Shown here piece by piece: positions 7,100 to 62,889 of a DNA stretch of 64,000 nucleotides. The notes below the pieces were generated by a model that was given only the letters and a program-made list of their open reading frames with translations, was not told where the DNA came from and ran no database searches. The position numbers and the translations under genes are program-made. This DNA comes from Bacteroidales bacterium (GTDB lineage Bacteria > Bacteroidota > Bacteroidia > Bacteroidales > P3): assembly GCA_017940465.1 (NCBI GenBank), contig JAGAYN010000044.1:3662-67661 (forward strand), read 5' to 3'. Numbering within the stretch: position 1 is the stretch's first letter; every line of letters begins with the position of its first letter.

Positions 7100-8389
7100 A
7101 TGACTACAACATTAACTTCAGCAATCATCATCATCCTGGTCGTCATCCTGCTGCTGGTGGCGCTGCTCCTTGTGCTGCGCGCCAAGCTGGTGCCGCAGGG
7201 CAACGTCAAGATTACCATCAATGAAGATAAGGAACTCACCGCCCCGACGGGAGGCACCCTCATCTCCACCCTCGGCGAGCAAGGCATCCACCTGCCCTCG
7301 GCCTGCGGCGGCAAAGGCAGCTGCGGCCAGTGCAAATGCCGTGTCGTCCGTGGCGGCGGCGAGATTCTCCCCACCGAGAAAGGCTTCTTCAGCCGCAAGC
7401 AGCAGCAGGAGGGCTGGCGCCTCGGCTGCCAGGTGAAGGTCAAGGAAGACCTCGCCCTCCGGCTCCCCGAGAGCATCCTCAGCATCAAGGAATACGAGTG
7501 CACCGTGGTCAGCAACAGCAACGTCGCCACCTTCATCAAGGAGTTCAAGGTGCAGCTGCCCGCCGGCGAGCACATGGACTTCGTGCCCGGCAGCTACGCC
7601 CAGATCAAGATACCGAAGTTCACGGTGAAATACAGCGACTTCGACCGCTCCCTCATCGGAGACGAGTACCTGCCCGCCTGGGAGAAGGCGGGGATGTTCG
7701 ACCTCGTCTGCACGAACACCGAGCCCACCGTCCGCGCCTACTCCATGGCCAACTATCCCGCCGAGGGCGACGTCTTCATGCTCACCGTCCGCATCGCCAC
7801 CCCGCCGCTCACCGCCGACCGCAGCGGATTCCAGAAGGTCAACCCCGGCATCGCCTCTTCTTATATATTCTCGCTCAAGCCCGGCGACAAGGTCATCATG
7901 AGCGGCCCCTACGGCGAGTTCAGCGTCCGCGGCACCGCCGACGGCACCTGGAGCGACGACCCCAAGGGCAACGAGATGATCTGGGTCGGCGGCGGCGCCG
8001 GCATGGCCCCCCTCCGCGCACAGATCATGCACCTCACCCGCACCCTCAACTGCACCCACCGCCCGATGCACTACTTCTACGGCGCCCGCGCCCTCAACGA
8101 GGTCTTCTACCTGCAGGATTTCCTCCAGCTCGAGCAGTCGCACCCCAACTTCCACTTCCACCTGGCGCTGGACCGTCCCGACCCTGCCGCCGACGCCGCC
8201 GGCGTGAAGTACACCCCCGGCTTCGTCCACAACGTCATGCTCGAGACCTACCTCAAGGACCACCTCGCCCCCGAGGACATCGAGTACTACATGTGCGGCC
8301 CCGGTCCCATGAGCAAGGCCGTCATCCAGATGCTCGACTCCCTCGGTGTCCAGCCCGAGAGCATCGCCTTCGACGACTTCGGCGGCTGA
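7100..8389 (+). CDS. nqrF: Na+-NQR subunit F
   Basis: N-terminal TM helix, 2Fe-2S motif CGGKGSCGQCKC, FAD/NADH domain (RAYSMANYP, GGGAGMAP). Confidence 0.92.
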   Translation: MTTTLTSAIIIILVVILLLVALLLVLRAKLVPQGNVKITINEDKELTAPTGGTLISTLGEQGIHLPSACGGKGSCGQCKCRVVRGGGEILPTEKGFFSRKQQQEGWRLGCQVKVKEDLALRLPESILSIKEYECTVVSNSNVATFIKEFKVQLPAGEHMDFVPGSYAQIKIPKFTVKYSDFDRSLIGDEYLPAWEKAGMFDLVCTNTEPTVRAYSMANYPAEGDVFMLTVRIATPPLTADRSGFQKVNPGIASSYIFSLKPGDKVIMSGPYGEFSVRGTADGTWSDDPKGNEMIWVGGGAGMAPLRAQIMHLTRTLNCTHRPMHYFYGARALNEVFYLQDFLQLEQSHPNFHFHLALDRPDPAADAAGVKYTPGFVHNVMLETYLKDHLAPEDIEYYMCGPGPMSKAVIQMLDSLGVQPESIAFDDFGG

Positions 8390-8603
8390 TTTCTGCTACT
8401 CCTGCTGGCCACCACAGTCAGCACGCAGCAGGCCCGCCGCTATTGAGCCGCCGGGCCACTCTCGTGGAACGCCTTCCACCAACACTTCTGGCAGCGCTAC
8501 CGCCTGCCAGCCTCTTGGCACCCCGTTCCTCCGAATTGTCTCGCTGGAGCATCGATGCACGCCTGATGCTGATGCGCAACAAATACGGATTCTTTTACTT
8601 TTT

Positions 8604-8878
8604 TTTGCCACGTCGGAAAAAGTTCGCATCTTTGCACTCGCAAAACCGATAGGACGGTTTGCCGAGAAAGTTGCATTATCGCCTTATTCCGATTGTGTGA
8701 ACCTAGACAATTTACACGTCATCCGTAAAGTTAGGAATAGAGGAAATCCGATATGCTCCCATGGATTGATATCCACCTGTGGGGCAATTCAGAATACCTT
8801 TATATTCACTTTACGGGGAAGTCTAGGCCCTCACACAAGAAGATAGAGACTTAATGGATGGCTCCACTTTCTTCGTTG
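8604..8878 (+). ncRNA. Conserved promoter + structured 5' leader element, copy A
   Basis: TTTG (8604-8607), 19 nt, CATCTTTG (8627-8634). Blockwise alignment to 58608-58893 and 61079-61365. Ends in AATGGATGGCTCCACTTTCTTCGTTG, 72 nt before the ATG at 8950. Confidence 0.6.
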
Positions 8879-8949
8879 TATTAATTCACTCGCCGAAGAG
8901 CCTGTTGGCAAACTAACAGTTGCGCACGACACGTACCAGTGACACATTT

Positions 8950-9951
8950 ATGACCCAAACACACAAACTCCTCACCCTGGCCCTCGCCGCCACCCTCGCC
9001 TTCGCAGCCTGCGACAAAGACGATAACTCGGGTAAACAAATTGAATGGATGGAGGATTATTACTACAGTTCCTCTAGTCGCTCTACCGATGGGCGTTTTC
9101 ACCGAACCAGATTCTCTTGGGAGGGAGGACAGCTTAGGCGGCTGGAGTATTTCGACGCCGACAATCAGCGGGTTATATACTACATCGAAATAGTCTACGA
9201 GGACGGCAAGGCGAAAGAGGTGCGCGGGTACGATGAGTCCGGGAAAGCATGGGAGTCTGCCACCCTCTCTGCCACCCTCTTCTACACGGATGACAAAATA
9301 ACGAGCATCCAGTCTTCTTCCTATGCCGTCACGTACGAATACAACTCCGCCGGCGAGCTGGTCAAAGTAACCGGGTCGGATGGCTCCACCACCACCTTCC
9401 TCTGGGAGAACGGCAACATTGTTGAAGAGCGCCATGAAGACAGAATCACGACCTATACCTACGACAACAAGACAAACCCATACCATTCGGCATGCATCGT
9501 TGCATACCTTGGTGAACCAGGCGCTCGAATGCTTTCCCGAAACAACATCGTCAGCGAAACCTACACAAGCGGAGACTACGAAAGCCGCGATGAGTATTCA
9601 TATACCTACGACGGCGACTACCCCACCACAGTAACATCCAACACCTCCGACGGAAAAGATGTTACCTACTTCCGCTATACCGACGGCAGCGGCATGTCCG
9701 CCCCGGACATGTGCCACATCAAAATCGAGGACGGATACGAAGACCATGAGAGTAGACCCTACTACGTATATGGCGTCGGCACCTATGCCAAAGGCGACAA
9801 GGTTATCATTAGCACAGATGCGGACTACTTCCACGACGACACCTTCTACATCTTCTCCCACTGGAGCGACGGCAACACCGACAACCCCCGCACCTTCACT
9901 GCCACCGCCGACGTCACCCTCCGGCCCGTCTACACAGCCGCCGAGTATTAA
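8950..9951 (+). CDS. Lipoprotein with YD/RHS-like beta repeats
   Basis: ATG 8950 gives MTQTHKLLTLALAATLAFAAC (lipobox). Repeat-like segments include YEYNSAGELVKV and YTYDNKTNPY. Paralog of 58974..59747 (shared FSWE block and repeat pattern). Confidence 0.8.
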   Translation: MTQTHKLLTLALAATLAFAACDKDDNSGKQIEWMEDYYYSSSSRSTDGRFHRTRFSWEGGQLRRLEYFDADNQRVIYYIEIVYEDGKAKEVRGYDESGKAWESATLSATLFYTDDKITSIQSSSYAVTYEYNSAGELVKVTGSDGSTTTFLWENGNIVEERHEDRITTYTYDNKTNPYHSACIVAYLGEPGARMLSRNNIVSETYTSGDYESRDEYSYTYDGDYPTTVTSNTSDGKDVTYFRYTDGSGMSAPDMCHIKIEDGYEDHESRPYYVYGVGTYAKGDKVIISTDADYFHDDTFYIFSHWSDGNTDNPRTFTATADVTLRPVYTAAEY

Positions 9952-9982
9952 AAAACACCCTCCACGGCTGCTCTATGCCCCT

Positions 9983-10016
9983 GGCCCGCGACCCCGTCGC
10001 GGGCCTTTCTCTTTTT
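9983..10016 (+). terminator. Rho-independent terminator of the 8950 gene
   Basis: GGCCCGCGA / TCGCGGGCC stem followed by TTTCTCTTTTT. Confidence 0.7.
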
Positions 10017-10160
10017 GCATCCCCGGAGCACTCCTGCCAATGCCCTACAGGATAAAAAGAGGAGCAAAACCTATAGCATACAGCATACTGGCAATCAACA
10101 TGTTATACTGGTGCATTTTTCGGCCGTTTTCGGGTTTTTGTGCGAAAAACGGGCGGAGAT
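10014..10160 (+). repeat. Conserved 3' element, copy A
   Basis: GCATCCCCGGAGCACTCCTGCC, then a purine-rich box, then CATACAGCATACTGGCAATCAAC. Aligns with 59806-59950, 62910-63045 and, inverted, 21486-21612. Confidence 0.6.
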
Positions 10161-10264
10161 TCCACGTGCTGCACAGACAGCATGTATCATGCTGGTTTTC
10201 AATATATATGCGTATATTACATTTAAAAGGCAACGGCAATGCGCCGTATATTGTTTTTATTTCG

Positions 10265-10272
10265 TATCTTTG
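10265..10272 (+). promoter_or_regulatory. -7 box (TATCTTTG) of the sdh/frd operon promoter
   Basis: TTCGTATCTTTGCACCC lies 46 nt before the sdhC ATG. The same TTCGTAnnTTTGCA context recurs at other genes here. Confidence 0.55.
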
Positions 10273-10317
10273 CACCCTCGAAATAAGTGATAATACTATC
10301 GTACAATATTAAAATAT

Positions 10318-57370: not shown

Positions 57371-57441
57371 GGTCGTTTGGCCGAGGGGCTAGGCACAGGT
57401 CTGCAAAACCTGCTACTCCGGTTCAAATCCGGAAGCGACCT
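57371..57441 (+). tRNA. tRNA-Cys (GCA)
   Basis: Hand-folded cloverleaf: acceptor GGTCGTT/AGCGACC, anticodon arm CAGGT-CTGCAAA-ACCTG (anticodon GCA), T arm TCCGG-TTCAAAT-CCGGA, discriminator U. CCA is not encoded. Confidence 0.9.
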
Positions 57442-58500: not shown

Positions 58501-58607
58501 GTTGGTTTTTGCCCTTGTAACGCACACCCCCGCCTGTTTATTGCCTACCGATATATGTTTTCATGCGTAGAATGACAGCTCACGGATCGCGGCAGCCAAA
58601 ATATTTT

Positions 58608-58893
58608 TTTGCCGTATGAGAAAAAGTTTGTACTTTTGCACCCGCAAACCGCCGAGACATGGTTTGCCGAGAAAGTTGCATTTTTCGCCTTATTCCGAGT
58701 TTGTGAACTTGGCCGTTCATCAATAATGATATGTAGGAATAATAGGGAAGATGAATGCTCCTGTTTGGAATGTATGCACATGAGATACATCCAGTGTGGA
58801 GCGAATCATTAAACCATTATTTTATATCATTGGGAGGCCAAGCCCACACAAACAAAATAGTGCCAAGAATGGATGGCTCCACTTTCTTCGTTG
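58608..58893 (+). ncRNA. Conserved promoter + structured 5' leader element, copy B
   Basis: TTTG (58608-58611), 19 nt, TACTTTTG (58631-58638). Conserved blocks and helices are described in the findings. Ends 80 nt before the ATG at 58974. Confidence 0.6.
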
Positions 58894-58973
58894 CGTAAAA
58901 CTATCCCTCCCGTGCCGTGGGGAACAACTCAACAGCGACGGGCCGATGCTTTATAACCGGCTACAAAAAACCA

Positions 58974-59747
58974 ATGAAAGTAATACGATTATTACTGGCA
59001 ACAACGCTCCTGGCACTCGGAGCAACCCTGACCTCCTGCTCCAACGACGACGACAAAGCCGGCATGGGAAAGGCCCTGACCAGGCTCACTCTCGAAGATG
59101 AAGACGGCTACTACCAATCCCTCCACTTTTCCTGGGAGGACAACAAGGTAAGCTTCATTCAAGTTTGGGAATCAAATCGTTATGGAAACATGCTTCTTTC
59201 TGCCGAACTGACGCCAGAATACCGCAACGGCAAACTGGAATCCTGCTATGCCTACAGTGCAGAAGACCGCTCCGGCATCACCCTGCAAGGCAACTACACT
59301 GGCAATCAACTCACTCAAGTACAGATTCCTCGCGAGGACCCCGCACTGCTCAGCTACGACACCGAAGGCAACCTCCGCTCCATTAACATCAACCACGACC
59401 AGCTCTCCTTCTCGTGGAGCGGCGGACGCATTACACAAATCATCGACCCTGATGGGCGTTCTGTTTCCGTGACGTGCGACGACAAACGCAACCCGCTGAA
59501 CGATGTCATCCGCTGCATCATAGGCTCTTGGAGCGCCACAATGGGCAATATCACACGCCTGGTAAACTACCGTGGCGAAACCGTCGACCTCCAGTACACC
59601 TTCGACGGCGACTACCCCTCGCAGTGCCGTGTCATTGTGGATGGGAAAGTAGGCGGCATCCTATATTACGAGTACGCAGACGGCAGCGGTTCGGCTCCGG
59701 CCAACCTTCCCGCCAACTACAGCAAGAAAAGCTGGCGCATCTTCTAA
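58974..59747 (+). CDS. Lipoprotein with YD/RHS-like beta repeats (paralog of 8950..9951)
   Basis: ATG 58974 gives MKVIRLLLATTLLALGATLTSC (lipobox). Contains HFSWEDNKVSF, YDTEGNLRSI and FSWSGGRITQIIDPDGRS. Confidence 0.8.
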   Translation: MKVIRLLLATTLLALGATLTSCSNDDDKAGMGKALTRLTLEDEDGYYQSLHFSWEDNKVSFIQVWESNRYGNMLLSAELTPEYRNGKLESCYAYSAEDRSGITLQGNYTGNQLTQVQIPREDPALLSYDTEGNLRSININHDQLSFSWSGGRITQIIDPDGRSVSVTCDDKRNPLNDVIRCIIGSWSATMGNITRLVNYRGETVDLQYTFDGDYPSQCRVIVDGKVGGILYYEYADGSGSAPANLPANYSKKSWRIF

Positions 59748-59774
59748 ACCTATCCGGCGCAGGCTGGAACGACA

Positions 59775-59809
59775 GGGACACCTATGCCTTGCAGAGGTGT
59801 CCCTTTTTT
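59775..59809 (+). terminator. Rho-independent terminator of the 58974 gene
   Basis: GGGACACCT / AGGTGTCCC stem followed by TTTTTT. Confidence 0.75.
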
Positions 59810-59950
59810 GCATCCCTGCCATCCTCCCGGAGCACTCCTGGAGGGTAAGGAGAGGGGAAGAAGAGGGTGCCTCTTACATACTGAAAAACAGCCTGTTGCA
59901 AAACTGCAACTTAGGGCTGTTTTTCGGTTTTTTTTCGGAAAATCTGCAAA
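59806..59950 (+). repeat. Conserved 3' element, copy B
   Basis: TTTGCATCCC...CCGGAGCACTCCTGGAGG, then GAGGGGAAGAAGAGGGTGCCTCTTACATACTGAAAAACA, then a hairpin at 59889-59919 with a T-run at 59920-59936. Confidence 0.6.
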
Positions 59951-59969
59951 GGATTGCGGGGGTGTGTCG

Positions 59970-60863
59970 CTAATGCAGCGGGATGTGGCGCAACTGCTTC
60001 ATCTTCTTTGCGTTGAGGTGTGCCTGCTGGATGGTGGCGGGTGTCATGGCGGATTGCTGGAAGCGGTCGTAGACGATGTCCTCGGCCAGCGGCGAGGGGT
60101 GCGAGAGGTCGGGGCCGTAGAAGCGGTAGTCGCGCAGCTCGTCCAGCACAATTTCGTAGGCGGGGAAGTAGGAAATCGGAATTTGTAAGCTGAAAATCGA
60201 GAGCAGCTCCTCCACGGCCATCAGCAGGGTGGCCTTGCTGAGCTGGTTGCCGTGGGCACCGTCGGCCAGGTGGCGTATGGGGCTGACGGTGAAGATGATG
60301 TCGAGTCCGGGATTGAACTCCCTGAGTTTCACCAGCAGGGGTTTCCAAAGGGCGACGATTTCCCCCACCGGCATCCGCCGCCGCTCGAACATCGCCGCCG
60401 GCAGTTTGTGGCAGTTGGCCACCACCATCCGGGCGCCTTCGCCTTTCAGCCGGGGGATGAGGCCGTAGACCCATGCCGTGCCGAAGGTCACCATCAGCAC
60501 CCGTGCCGTATGCAATGCCTTGTGGGATTGGTGGATGCGGCTGTTGCATACCTCAAGCGTCTCCTCTGCCGTGGGGCGGGAGAAGGAGCCGTGGTGGTGC
60601 CACGAATGCCAAAGGCCCTCGTGCTGCACCAGGTCCCTGTCCGTGATTTCCCTGTCCTCCACCATGCGCTCCAGCGCCGCCGCCACCGACGCGGGATTGT
60701 ACAGCGTCCCGAACGGGTTCCGCTCCACACGGAATCCCCCCTCCTCCATCCTCCGCCCGATGGCATCGGCAAAGCACGAACCCATCGTCACCACCCCGTC
60801 CTCCATACTGATTTTCAACGGCATCGGCGACACCTCCACCGTGGTATAAAGCTGCATCTTCAT
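59970..60863 (-). CDS. GSCFA family protein
   Basis: Contains the GSCFA motif (VVTMGSCFADAIG). The start is probably at 60863 (MKMQLYTTV); the ORF is open to 60884. Confidence 0.8.
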   Translation of the reverse strand: MKMQLYTTVEVSPMPLKISMEDGVVTMGSCFADAIGRRMEEGGFRVERNPFGTLYNPASVAAALERMVEDREITDRDLVQHEGLWHSWHHHGSFSRPTAEETLEVCNSRIHQSHKALHTARVLMVTFGTAWVYGLIPRLKGEGARMVVANCHKLPAAMFERRRMPVGEIVALWKPLLVKLREFNPGLDIIFTVSPIRHLADGAHGNQLSKATLLMAVEELLSIFSLQIPISYFPAYEIVLDELRDYRFYGPDLSHPSPLAEDIVYDRFQQSAMTPATIQQAHLNAKKMKQLRHIPLH

Positions 60864-61078
60864 ATCTACATAGTTTATCCGCATAACGCTATATCACAAT
60901 GATTTATTACCCAACTATGTGAAAATAGCCAGTTACATGCCATTGCCACCACTCGTTACATATTATTTCATTCTATACGCATGATTCACAGCAATATAAC
61001 ATTGAACGTGCCAAATCTGGAATTGAATTCCAAATTTAGCCAGTGTGGATAGCCATCCTCCTATTCGCAGAAATATTT

Positions 61079-61365
61079 TTTGTCATATCTGGAAAAGTTT
61101 GTACCTTTGCACTCGCAAACCGCAAGAGTATGGTTTGCCGAGAAAGTTGCATTTTTCGCCTTATTCCTGGCTTGTGAAACTTCGACAACTTCACTAATGA
61201 TATACGGAACAAAGGATAGATTGATGCTCCTGATATGGTATATGTATTTTCCTATGCAATACCTTTGTGGAGCGGTTCATTACACCTTTATTTTATATCA
61301 TAGGGAGTCGAAGCCCTCACAAGCAAGATAGGGTTGCAAATGGAAGGCTCCACTTTCTTCGTTGC
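61079..61365 (+). ncRNA. Conserved promoter + structured 5' leader element, copy C
   Basis: TTTG (61079-61082), 19 nt, TACCTTTG (61102-61109). Ends in AATGGAAGGCTCCACTTTCTTCGTTGC, 72 nt before the ATG at 61438. Confidence 0.6.
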
Positions 61366-61437
61366 AAAATATATCTCAACGTGCCTTGGGAAAAAAAAAC
61401 TGAACCGCCAACAGTATAAAAGAGGCATAGTAACACC

Positions 61438-62889
61438 ATGAAAAAAACACTGTTTTTATGTATGTGCATCATCATGTTTGGGATGTCTGCAACTGCTCAA
61501 TATCAACTAACGCAGAGTATTGAACGCAAACTCCAAGGTAATCAGGAGACACTTAAGACGTTATCCAGCAATGGCGATGCAGAGGCCACGTACATACTAG
61601 GGTATCGAATGAAACTACAACCCTACAGAGACACCCTAAATCAGATGGCAAAAAACAAACAACCTGATGCGATGTTTTTCAAGTGGCTTTCATACCAATA
61701 CGGGAATGCATATCGCAGAAAGAAACCACTACTAAAGAAAACTGCCAAAAGTGGAAACAAATGGGCATGCTACATAATGGGGGAGATAACTCCATACAAA
61801 AAAAAGAAAGCAAAAAAGCAATGGTACATGAAGGCTGCTGAGGATAGTTGTGCAGACGCCTGCGTTGCACTATTAAAGTACTATTTTCCTGAGAATCAAA
61901 AAGACAGCATTTATATAATGATCAACAAAACTCTGGAGTTCTGTAAAGATGATAATGAACTCAAACATTTTGAGTATGAACTCGGCAAGGAACTCTATCA
62001 TTGCCTTCCTAAAGATGAAAAGGAACGAGAAAAGTACACATACATTATGCCTGACATAACTCAATTTCTTACAAATTCGTTTAATAATGGAAACTCTAAT
62101 GCTGCAGGGGAACTAATGAAATGCAATTACGAAAACCAAGACTATGAGCAAAGCATATACTATACATTCCAATACCTAGAGGCGTTCAGCAATCACATCC
62201 AGGTGAAAAGAGAATGTTATCTTAATTTATCCCGATGCTATCTTAAGACTGGAAAACCACAACTGGCAGAATCTTATGGCCTAGCGCGATATGAACTTAA
62301 CCTTAACGAATTTAACAATGGGCACTTACATTATGGATATCAGGCGTCTACCTCTGCAAAATGGATGAGCGAACTATATACTGAACTTGAAAGAGAAGAA
62401 GGGGCGCGATTGTGGTTTGAACGGGCAAAAGAGATTGAAAAACAGGCAAAGAAGTTGGAAAAATTAGCAAAAGAAAAAGAAAGACAGGCCCGATTGGAGC
62501 GTATTGCCAACGCCCTAGACAATGTCAATACAGTCCTGTCGGCAGCCAATGATTTGGCGACCCAAATCAACAATTACAAAGCCCCGTCATCTGCCAGCAC
62601 AACATCAGATTATTCAGGTTCCTCGTCCTCTACCAGCAAAAGCAGTCCCGGGAGAAAACACGACCCATATGCCGCCTCACATGAAGCCAACAAGCAGAAC
62701 GCCGAGAATATCTACCGTCGCTACAGCAACCAACTAATCGACATGAACACCAACTACGAGCGTGATTACAACGACAGCCAGCGCCGACAGATTCAAGCCA
62801 GCATGAAAAAGATACGCACCGAGTGGGAGCAAAAGGGCTATACGTTCTGGCATTCCCCATGGGAGAATTGGGACGGCCATAAACAATAA
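61438..62889 (+). CDS. Secreted Sel1/TPR-like protein with coiled-coil and Ser-rich C-terminal region
   Basis: Signal peptide MKKTLFLCMCIIMFGMSATAQ. Sel1-like units, a KEIEKQAKKLEKLAKEKERQARLE coiled coil and an S-rich tract. Markedly AT-rich compared with its surroundings. Confidence 0.75.
   Translation: MKKTLFLCMCIIMFGMSATAQYQLTQSIERKLQGNQETLKTLSSNGDAEATYILGYRMKLQPYRDTLNQMAKNKQPDAMFFKWLSYQYGNAYRRKKPLLKKTAKSGNKWACYIMGEITPYKKKKAKKQWYMKAAEDSCADACVALLKYYFPENQKDSIYIMINKTLEFCKDDNELKHFEYELGKELYHCLPKDEKEREKYTYIMPDITQFLTNSFNNGNSNAAGELMKCNYENQDYEQSIYYTFQYLEAFSNHIQVKRECYLNLSRCYLKTGKPQLAESYGLARYELNLNEFNNGHLHYGYQASTSAKWMSELYTELEREEGARLWFERAKEIEKQAKKLEKLAKEKERQARLERIANALDNVNTVLSAANDLATQINNYKAPSSASTTSDYSGSSSSTSKSSPGRKHDPYAASHEANKQNAENIYRRYSNQLIDMNTNYERDYNDSQRRQIQASMKKIRTEWEQKGYTFWHSPWENWDGHKQ

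Follow-up and report, generated by a model that had tools for sequence, protein, structure and literature searches.

The locus studied here raises the question of what stands between nqrF and the lipoprotein gene downstream of it, and whether this DNA encodes an RNA that controls that gene. It lies in a window of 64,000 nucleotides (the whole stretch of DNA that was analyzed, corresponding to contig C42) from a Bacteroidales genome of 2.24 Mb in 56 contigs. A sequence-only reading of the window had recognized three copies (A, B, and C) of a promoter-led leader, and had placed copy A directly after nqrF. The nqrF stop codon ends at position 8389, 215 nt before 8604 as had been stated, and the region from 8604 to 8949 is made up of a promoter, a 250-nt folded RNA, and two small hairpins, reaching up to the ATG of the lipoprotein gene at 8950. 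The unit and its gene comprise the following elements.

8604..8634, plus strand: promoter of copy A, with TTTG (−33) at 8604–8607, a 19-nt spacer, and the −7 box CATCTTTG at 8627–8634
8635..8884, plus strand: core of the structured leader RNA, 250 nt, a full-length match to covariance model R1
8950..9951, plus strand: downstream gene for a 333-aa lipoprotein, with the lipobox LAFAAC followed by DKDDN
9983..10015, plus strand: intrinsic terminator of the lipoprotein gene, GGCCCGCGACCCCGTCGCGGGCC plus TTTCTCTTTT

The promoter is one that we take to be of the Bacteroidetes (sigma-ABfr) type, judged against the Bacteroides sigma-ABfr consensus. Its 19-nt spacing is common to copies A, B, and C, as claimed, with −7 boxes reading TACTTTTG in B and TACCTTTG in C, and the pattern TTTG-19 nt-TAnnTTTG abuts the first model position in essentially every copy printed. 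R1 is a covariance model built from the 10 copies in the same genome, with 259 positions and 68 pairs. It matches copy A over model positions 1–259 (220.4 bits, E = 4e-55), and this full-length match, preceded immediately by the promoter and followed by the ATG at 8950, makes copy A a member of the R1 leader family. That copy A keeps the block order of the promoter-plus-leader unit and is a true, complete copy was thereby confirmed. Its likeness to B and C extends past the promoter and greatly exceeds chance, as judged by alignment and by the end-to-end R1 match (220 bits). From the positions of these elements, the lipoprotein mRNA is predicted to start at about 8637 with copy A as its 5′ leader. 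We regard it as shown or nearly shown that the leader has a promoter of its own and that its RNA forms a 5′ hairpin, a long rod closed by AGAAAG:CUUUCU, and two more small hairpins ahead of an unpaired start codon.

Several smaller peculiarities ascribed to copy A are real: an extra A in the 5′ strand of the first hairpin, P1 (GCAAAACCG at 8640–8648, compared with GCAAACCG in B and C); a 1-nt deletion at GCATT-ATCGCC (GTTGCATTATCGCC, one base less than GTTGCATTTTTCGCC); GTGGGGC at 8779–8785, where the consensus reads GTGGAGC; and a GGG...CCC hairpin flanked by G8815 and T8831. A leader-to-start distance of about 72 nt applies to A (71 nt from TTCGTTG to the ATG) and C (73 nt), but not to B (80 nt).

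Copy A had also been described as the most divergent copy, which is correct among the three copies of the window but not across the genome. In a three-way alignment of A with B (58605–58973) and C (61076–61437), mean column identity was 76%, with both ends conserved and the middle more variable; in a model-based alignment, A was 62% identical to B and 62% to C, and B and C were 73% identical to each other. The 13-mer GGCTCCACTTTCT occurs 11 times in the genome, identical in all occurrences, corresponding to 10 full copies and one copy of the 3′ third. Within this whole-genome set, copies G and J are more divergent overall than A, and A groups with the copies on contigs C16, C44, and C11, to which it is 77%, 73%, and 63% identical, respectively. 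This makes copy A an ordinary representative of a second subfamily rather than an outlier. The truncated eleventh copy (locus L011; contig C7 of the same genome, G000, about 66150–66530, minus strand) also precedes a lipoprotein gene; of the leader it retains only the 3′ third, together with the hairpins that come after it, and its 5′ part has been swapped for a G+C-rich, promoterless sequence.

The folded core of copy A is composed of the following strands.

8640..8662, plus strand: P1 hairpin near the 5′ end, GCAAAACCG paired with CGGTTTGC, with one bulged A
8663..8670, plus strand: 5′ strand of the closing helix, CG plus AGAAAG, whose partner is CTTTCT..CG at 8867–8875
8682..8743, plus strand: 5′ strands of the rod (helices 5–11), namely TTATT, TTGTGTG (8693–8699), CTAGAC (8703–8708), CCGTAAAGT (8723–8731), and GGAATAGAGG (8734–8743)
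8797..8846, plus strand: 3′ strands of the rod, namely CCTTTATATTC, ACTTTACGG, the GGG-AAGTCTAG-G-CCC hairpin, CACACAA (8832–8838), and GATAG (8842–8846)
8854..8878, plus strand: invariant 3′ box, ATGGATGGCTCCACTTTCT plus TCGTTG, which holds segment 3 (8861–8867) and then a U-rich run that is the 3′ strand of the closing helix

RNAalifold analysis of the 10 copies from this genome predicted P1, the closing helix (CCGAGAAAG/CTTTCTTCG), and one long interrupted rod in between. The rod comprises about 40 bp, distributed over the helices TTATT/GATAG, TTGTGTG/CACACAA, CTAGAC/GTCTAG, CCGTAAAGT/ACTTTACGG, and GGAATAGAGG/CCTTTATATTC and an apical stem. The minimum free energy (MFE) fold of copy A alone reproduces the rod (z = −3.9); the folding energy does not separate the strands, since z is −3.9 on both.

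Covariation was scored in 83 copies gathered by the model alone, with no sequence pattern used. Standard pairs filled 94.0% of the cells, as compared with 77.9% after shuffling of partners and 41–49% after sliding, and both sides had changed at 48 of the 68 pairs. The covariation score was 0.457, against 0.175, and a second set of 86 distinct copies gave the same picture, both alignments having been fitted to the rod model, which favors the rod. When RNAalifold was given a plain MAFFT alignment of 33 copies, misalignment of the variable parts made the rod disappear, and model-based alignments recovered it. Rod pairs such as one with AU in 32, GC in 16, UA in 13, and CG in 12 copies indicate that the pairing is no alignment artifact. 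Outside the rod, P1 (helix 1) shows double changes at all eight of its pairs across the family, and copy J of this genome carries a fully swapped version (GTCTTTC/GAAAGAC). Helix 2 includes pairs with the counts CG37 AU20 UA6 and GC30 GU20 AU13 UA12, and pair 77:409 of helix 3 is GC in 72 and AU in 6 copies. Thus, a conserved structured domain supported by covariation, as a riboswitch would require, is present. The central ~110 nt of copy A, said to be largely different from B and C, is indeed more variable in the alignment, but it is not loose sequence: it belongs to the best-covarying core of the rod, and on this comparative evidence it is the part in which sequence varies freely and pairing is preserved. 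Across the paired columns, G-U combinations outnumber A-C combinations by 620 to 87, indicating that selection acts on the sense strand transcribed from the promoter and not on a double-stranded inverted repeat.

The helices that had been proposed for the family, namely P1, the GGG/CCC hairpin, and a long-range GTGGAGC:GCTCCAC helix, all find support in covariation. The closing pair of the GGG/CCC hairpin (G8815-U8831 in A) is A-U in 73, U-A in 20, and G-U in 7 of 135 copies. The loop of this hairpin is also the 3′ strand of the CTAGAC/GTCTAG helix, and an exact 6-nt complement of it is found in the 5′ half of 132 of the 135 copies. The GGG/CCC region may be either a plain rod or a four-way junction with kissing loops. 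On the 5′ side, a local hairpin (GTGTGAA...TTTACAC) lies within 8682–8743 of copy A; as a replacement for rod helix 6, the local GTGAA/TTCAC pairing was not adopted, being about 88% paired at the shared columns, compared with 100% for the rod helix. Three internal-deletion variants, L069 (G006:C7), L070 (G006:C8), and L045 (G020:C115), of 83, 185, and 209 nt, respectively, have lost the apical part of the rod or the whole rod; P1, the 3′ box, and the closing helix are preserved in them.

We then looked at how widely the leader is distributed. Within the genus, R1 matched 108 of 143 species genomes, or 61 of 78 high-quality genomes, with 1–10 copies per genome; there were more than 300 R1 matches in all. 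Matches were found in five of 18 genera sampled from the family, and, among about 150 genomes from the order's other families, in three, which include a clear homolog (74 bits). These distant relatives belong to three other Bacteroidales families (L245 in G349:C2, 74 bits; L246 in G363:C1, 38 bits; L247 in G394:C12, 34 bits) and retain the AGAAAG...CTTTCT closure and the CTGGAC/GTCCAG helix, which suggests a wider leader superfamily. In public genomes, one genome per species, the exact 19-mer ATGGATGGCTCCACTTTCT was present at no fewer than 111 loci. Among the matches listed, all but two chance ones came from metagenome-assembled genomes (MAGs) of uncultured Bacteroidales, from the rumen or gut of cattle, sheep, goat, yak, deer, and reindeer and from horse feces. 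They include MAGs of Ca. Colimorpha pelethequi and Ca. Scybalousia scybalohippi, whose genera were placed in GTDB family P3 by their describers (PMC8957277).

A search of the whole window against Rfam 15 at the gathering threshold matched a tRNA alone, and at E values up to 10, positions 8390–9000 and 58550–61500 gave only chance-level matches (Ysr209 at 15 bits and two miRNA models). The tRNA gene, at 57371–57441 of the window, has a promoter resembling those of the leaders. In the literature on structured leaders of Bacteroidales, on Cryptobacteroides, UBA932, and RC9, and on FopS, we found no description of the element. Taken together, these findings make it very probable that copy A belongs to a new family of structured, cis-acting leader RNA, apparently undescribed, though of a known general kind.

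What might such an RNA do? Three short segments of the core are of particular relevance to this question.

8753..8759, plus strand: segment 1, ATGCTCC, the 5′ strand of the apical helix formed with segment 2; 89.6% paired
8779..8785, plus strand: segment 2, GTGGGGC in copy A (consensus GTGGAGC), complementary to both segment 1 and segment 3
8861..8867, plus strand: segment 3, GCTCCAC, inside the 3′ box; the segment 2:3 pairing is 98.9% complete, with eight AU double changes

Copy A had been put forward as the source of compatible-substitution evidence for the long-range helix, a role that it does not fill. Its difference is a one-sided A-to-G change that gives a G-U pair with GCTCCAC and equally with ATGCTCC, so that copy A alone decides nothing. 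Instead, the evidence comes from the family. Position 277 in segment 2 covaries with both of its partners: pair 205:277 of the apical helix is CG in 55, UG in 14, and UA in 8 copies, and long-range pair 277:402 is GC in 66, AU in 8, and GU in 6 copies. All three segments have changed in concert in seven copies from other genera (GCTTC / GAAGC / GCTTCAC) and in one further copy (GCTCGC / GCGGAGC / GCTCCGC), and G-U intermediates of these changes are also present in the family. Since the apical and long-range helices both covary, segment 2 has been kept complementary to two partners. The three-segment covariation is good but not conclusive, as it may represent two independent events in related lineages. 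In a competing hairpin within the 3′ box (TGGA/TCCA), preferred by RNAalifold, the C-to-U change is never compensated: pair 393:402 is GC in 60, GU in 14, and another combination in 7 copies. The predicted energies are −14 to −20 kcal/mol for the whole apical hairpin (its 5-bp closing helix accounts for just part of this) and −12 to −14 kcal/mol for the 7-bp long-range duplex.

Because evolution has kept both pairings of segment 2, and at similar strength, our favored reading, which we rate slightly better than even, is that copy A acts as a promoter-led 5′ leader forming a two-state (or pseudoknotted) cis-regulatory switch that co-regulates the genes tagged with it. In this model, segment 1 would be transcribed first, and the apical stem would accordingly form first; the emerging segment 3 could then invade through an unpaired GU toehold, producing the long-range GUGGAGC:GCUCCAC helix. 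Together with the U-run UUUCUUCGUUG, this helix would stop transcription before the gene, and apical pairing would allow passage. What fraction of transcripts reaches the gene would depend on any factor that stabilizes or destabilizes the conserved core or the apical stem, and a cellular signal (small molecule, protein, or RNA) acting on the conserved core could co-regulate all genes carrying the leader. The terminator-switch mechanism specifically is a possibility that we put below even. The candidate terminator is a 7-bp helix with five G-C pairs followed by UUUCUUCGUUG, a U-run resembling that of the lipoprotein gene's own terminator. The simple terminator scan makes no call at this site, whose strands lie about 75–90 nt apart, and the stretch between segments 2 and 3 is paired with sequence outside the loop, unlike in ordinary intrinsic terminators.

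The same topology speaks for the strongest competitor of the switch, a static leader with a permanent pseudoknot, which would serve as a 5′ stabilizer, as a processing site with a duplex suited to RNase III, or as a docking platform for a protein that sets translation or decay. With the strands of segments 2 and 3 about 75–90 nt apart in a pseudoknot arrangement, the long-range helix may be static, and by a geometric estimate the linkers are long enough to accommodate it alongside the intact rod. In addition, deletion variants lacking segment 2 (GUGGAGC) still retain the 3′ box. P1 sits at the extreme 5′ end of the transcript, some 5 nt past the −7 box; the rod is long, at about 40 bp; long invariant stretches without a partner (ATGGATG and GCATT) suggest recognition by a protein; and the MFE fold leaves the start codon open. 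However, a single fold fails to explain why the apical ATGCTCC helix covaries at the same positions of segment 2, and some 100 invariant bases are more than a plain stabilizer needs. We consider the static leader doubtful.

We next turned to the region between the core and the start codon, which contains two further elements.

8892..8909, plus strand: post-core hairpin, GCCGA-AGAGCCTG-TTGGC, whose loop carries a conserved G-N-G-C-C (GAGCC)
8918..8945, plus strand: pre-start module, AGTTGCGCACGACACGTACCAGTG, with a small hairpin CAC...GTG (CCC...GGG in other copies; covariation judged by eye)

The post-core hairpin directly follows TTCGTTG and has a stem that varies across copies. Stems of at least 4 bp flank G-N-G-C-C in 77 of 121 copies, compared with a mean of 18.9 and a maximum of 31 when the flanks were shuffled. 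The pre-start module of A reads GTTGCGCACGACACGTACCAGTG, where other copies carry GCCGATGSTATATAACYGGC; across copies there are two alternative modules, GTTGCGCNCGACACGTA...GKG and GCCGATGSTATATAACYGGC, each hairpin-like with a conserved loop. In the MFE fold of A the start codon is unpaired, which speaks against a leader that simply sequesters the start site.

A same-strand ORF follows 117 of the 121 distinct copies, starting 8–90 nt past the end of the model in 113 of these. By a crude rule under which several of the 32 negatives are obvious misses, 85 of the 117 downstream ORFs have a signal-peptide-like N-terminus, as compared with 26% of 1575 background ORFs of the genome; a lipobox was found in 39 of 117, versus 6.4% of the same background. 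The downstream proteins belong to many families, and about one-fifth are not exported (zinc-ribbon, radical SAM/SPASM, and TM2 proteins), so that no coherent ligand suggests itself. The lipoprotein behind copy A has only weak matches to DUF4595 and RHS repeats. The leader family thus sits before changeable, mostly cell-surface genes, and probably controls their expression.

This arrangement bears on a second competitor, in which the element would be an independent gene for a trans-acting sRNA of about 255 nt ending at the U-run, with the downstream gene a mere neighbor or reached by leak-through. The element has its own promoter and a terminal stem with a U-run, and it is present in multiple copies per genome, like the FopS sRNAs of Bacteroides (PMC11697453). 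However, its orientation is always that of the ORF, at a narrow distance (40–90 nt), and the ORF is absent after only 4 of 121 copies. Moreover, the copies inspected showed no promoter motif in the stretch from the core to the ATG, and further conserved hairpins extend up to the start codon. We regard a free-standing sRNA gene as improbable.

We also examined the chromosomal slot occupied by copy A. Among 30 species of the genus, the nqrF–frdC junction (8390–10317, compared with loci L215–L244) is variable. In seven of them frdC comes directly after nqrF, at a distance of 45–136 nt, and in three (this genome, G006, and G127) nqrF is followed by a leader and a homolog of the lipoprotein of A. 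In G006, an ortholog with 57% identity follows the post-nqrF leader copy, and in G127 a PIN-domain gene intervenes in the nqrF-leader-lipoprotein arrangement. The remaining species carry unrelated genes after nqrF, such as those for an AAA ATPase, secreted proteins, or a PIN-domain protein. As it is kept in few relatives, the leader-gene unit of A is an accessory insert between two core operons. In the spacer between nqrF and the element, the simple scan called no canonical terminator. The spacer folds into several stable hairpins, the last of which is followed by a T-run that also precedes the −33 box. At 8533–8606 of the window lies a long imperfect hairpin with TTCTTTTACTTTTTTTT behind it, immediately before the −33 box of the leader. 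This hairpin could be the terminator of the nqr operon; its loop is too large for the simple scan to detect it.

The variability of the slot counts in favor of a third competitor, namely selection at the DNA level on a MITE-like repeat, on a promoter cassette that is mobile, or on a single-stranded recombination site that folds like an integron attC, any of which would move or exchange accessory genes. The element is multi-copy and precedes ever-changing accessory genes, the slot of A contains nothing in seven of 30 related species and different genes in most of the rest, and truncated and internally deleted copies exist. The strand asymmetry is compatible with single-stranded DNA, and G-T is the most tolerated mismatch in folded DNA too. 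Nonetheless, the 7:1 excess of G-U over A-C rules out a double-stranded inverted repeat, the promoter is fixed immediately upstream, and the orientation is always toward the gene. Neither terminal inverted repeats nor target duplications were seen in the alignments, and plasmid and phage collections contained no copy of the leader. We regard selection on the DNA itself as very unlikely. A protein-coding explanation is negligible: the 166-aa ORF at 8346–8846 is open and the ATG of ATGGATGG is conserved, but the former is best read as spurious, since B and C have no counterpart frame (as had been pointed out) and no common frame survives the indels of the variable parts, synonymous variation is absent from the 19-mer, whose one common change would be Ser to Phe, and the peptides of small ORFs such as ATGGATGGCTCCACTTTCTTCGTTG... 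end at different lengths in A, B, and C.

The bacteria that carry the leader are abundant, uncultured fiber degraders of the rumen and hindgut, in which gene regulation is almost unexplored. An RNA of 250 nt that is found in more than 100 species, in up to 10 copies per genome, and on varied surface-protein genes would amount to a shared layer of surface control after transcription initiation, and would make the family a possible new class of RNA that responds to a ligand or a protein. More tentatively, and we think this rather unlikely in its full form, the leaders may constitute a new class of riboswitch or protein-controlled switch in which one global signal acts through a pseudoknotted rod on horizontally exchanged surface-protein cassettes of uncultured rumen Bacteroidales; any newly acquired gene would then be given the leader as a portable regulatory tag. 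The position of copy A between two core respiratory operons illustrates how promoter-leader-gene units are slotted into the chromosome. Copy A thus contributes a second subfamily, an accessory-slot context, and the family-wide evidence for the long-range helix that its G-U change prompted.

Among known systems, the 5′ UTR stabilizers of the E. coli ompA type share with the leader a hairpin (here P1) that lies a few nucleotides from where an envelope-protein mRNA is predicted to begin; unlike in those stabilizers, P1 is a small part of the leader, and the other ~230 nt are conserved beyond what stabilization needs. FopS and GibS of Bacteroides thetaiotaomicron are multicopy, trans-acting sRNAs of 65–70 nt with a conserved seed region, R1′ (PMC11697453). 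They are likewise multicopy Bacteroidales RNAs with canonical sigma-ABfr promoters that are linked to the control of outer-membrane proteins (PMC11697453), but the leader is set apart by length and architecture, at about 250 nt plus extensions and located in cis before an ORF.

The c-di-GMP-I (GEMM-I) riboswitch resembles the leader in having a folded core right after the promoter, many copies per genome, and diverse exported or surface genes downstream, and it may also resemble it in having one segment with two partners that exclude each other, one of which precedes a U-run. On the other hand, the leader matches no Rfam family, including GEMM; its core is rod-like and much larger, at about 250 nt; its candidate terminator stem is long-range; and nothing in its downstream genes hints at a ligand. 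Attenuators and riboswitch expression platforms of the pbuE adenine type differ in using compact hairpins, whereas segments 2 and 3 of the leader are about 75–90 nt apart and the stretch between them is paired upstream, giving a pseudoknot. What the leader would have in common with these platforms is the three-segment logic (1:2 or 2:3), the U-run after segment 3, and an unpaired toehold of 2–3 nt, the GU of GUGGAGC.
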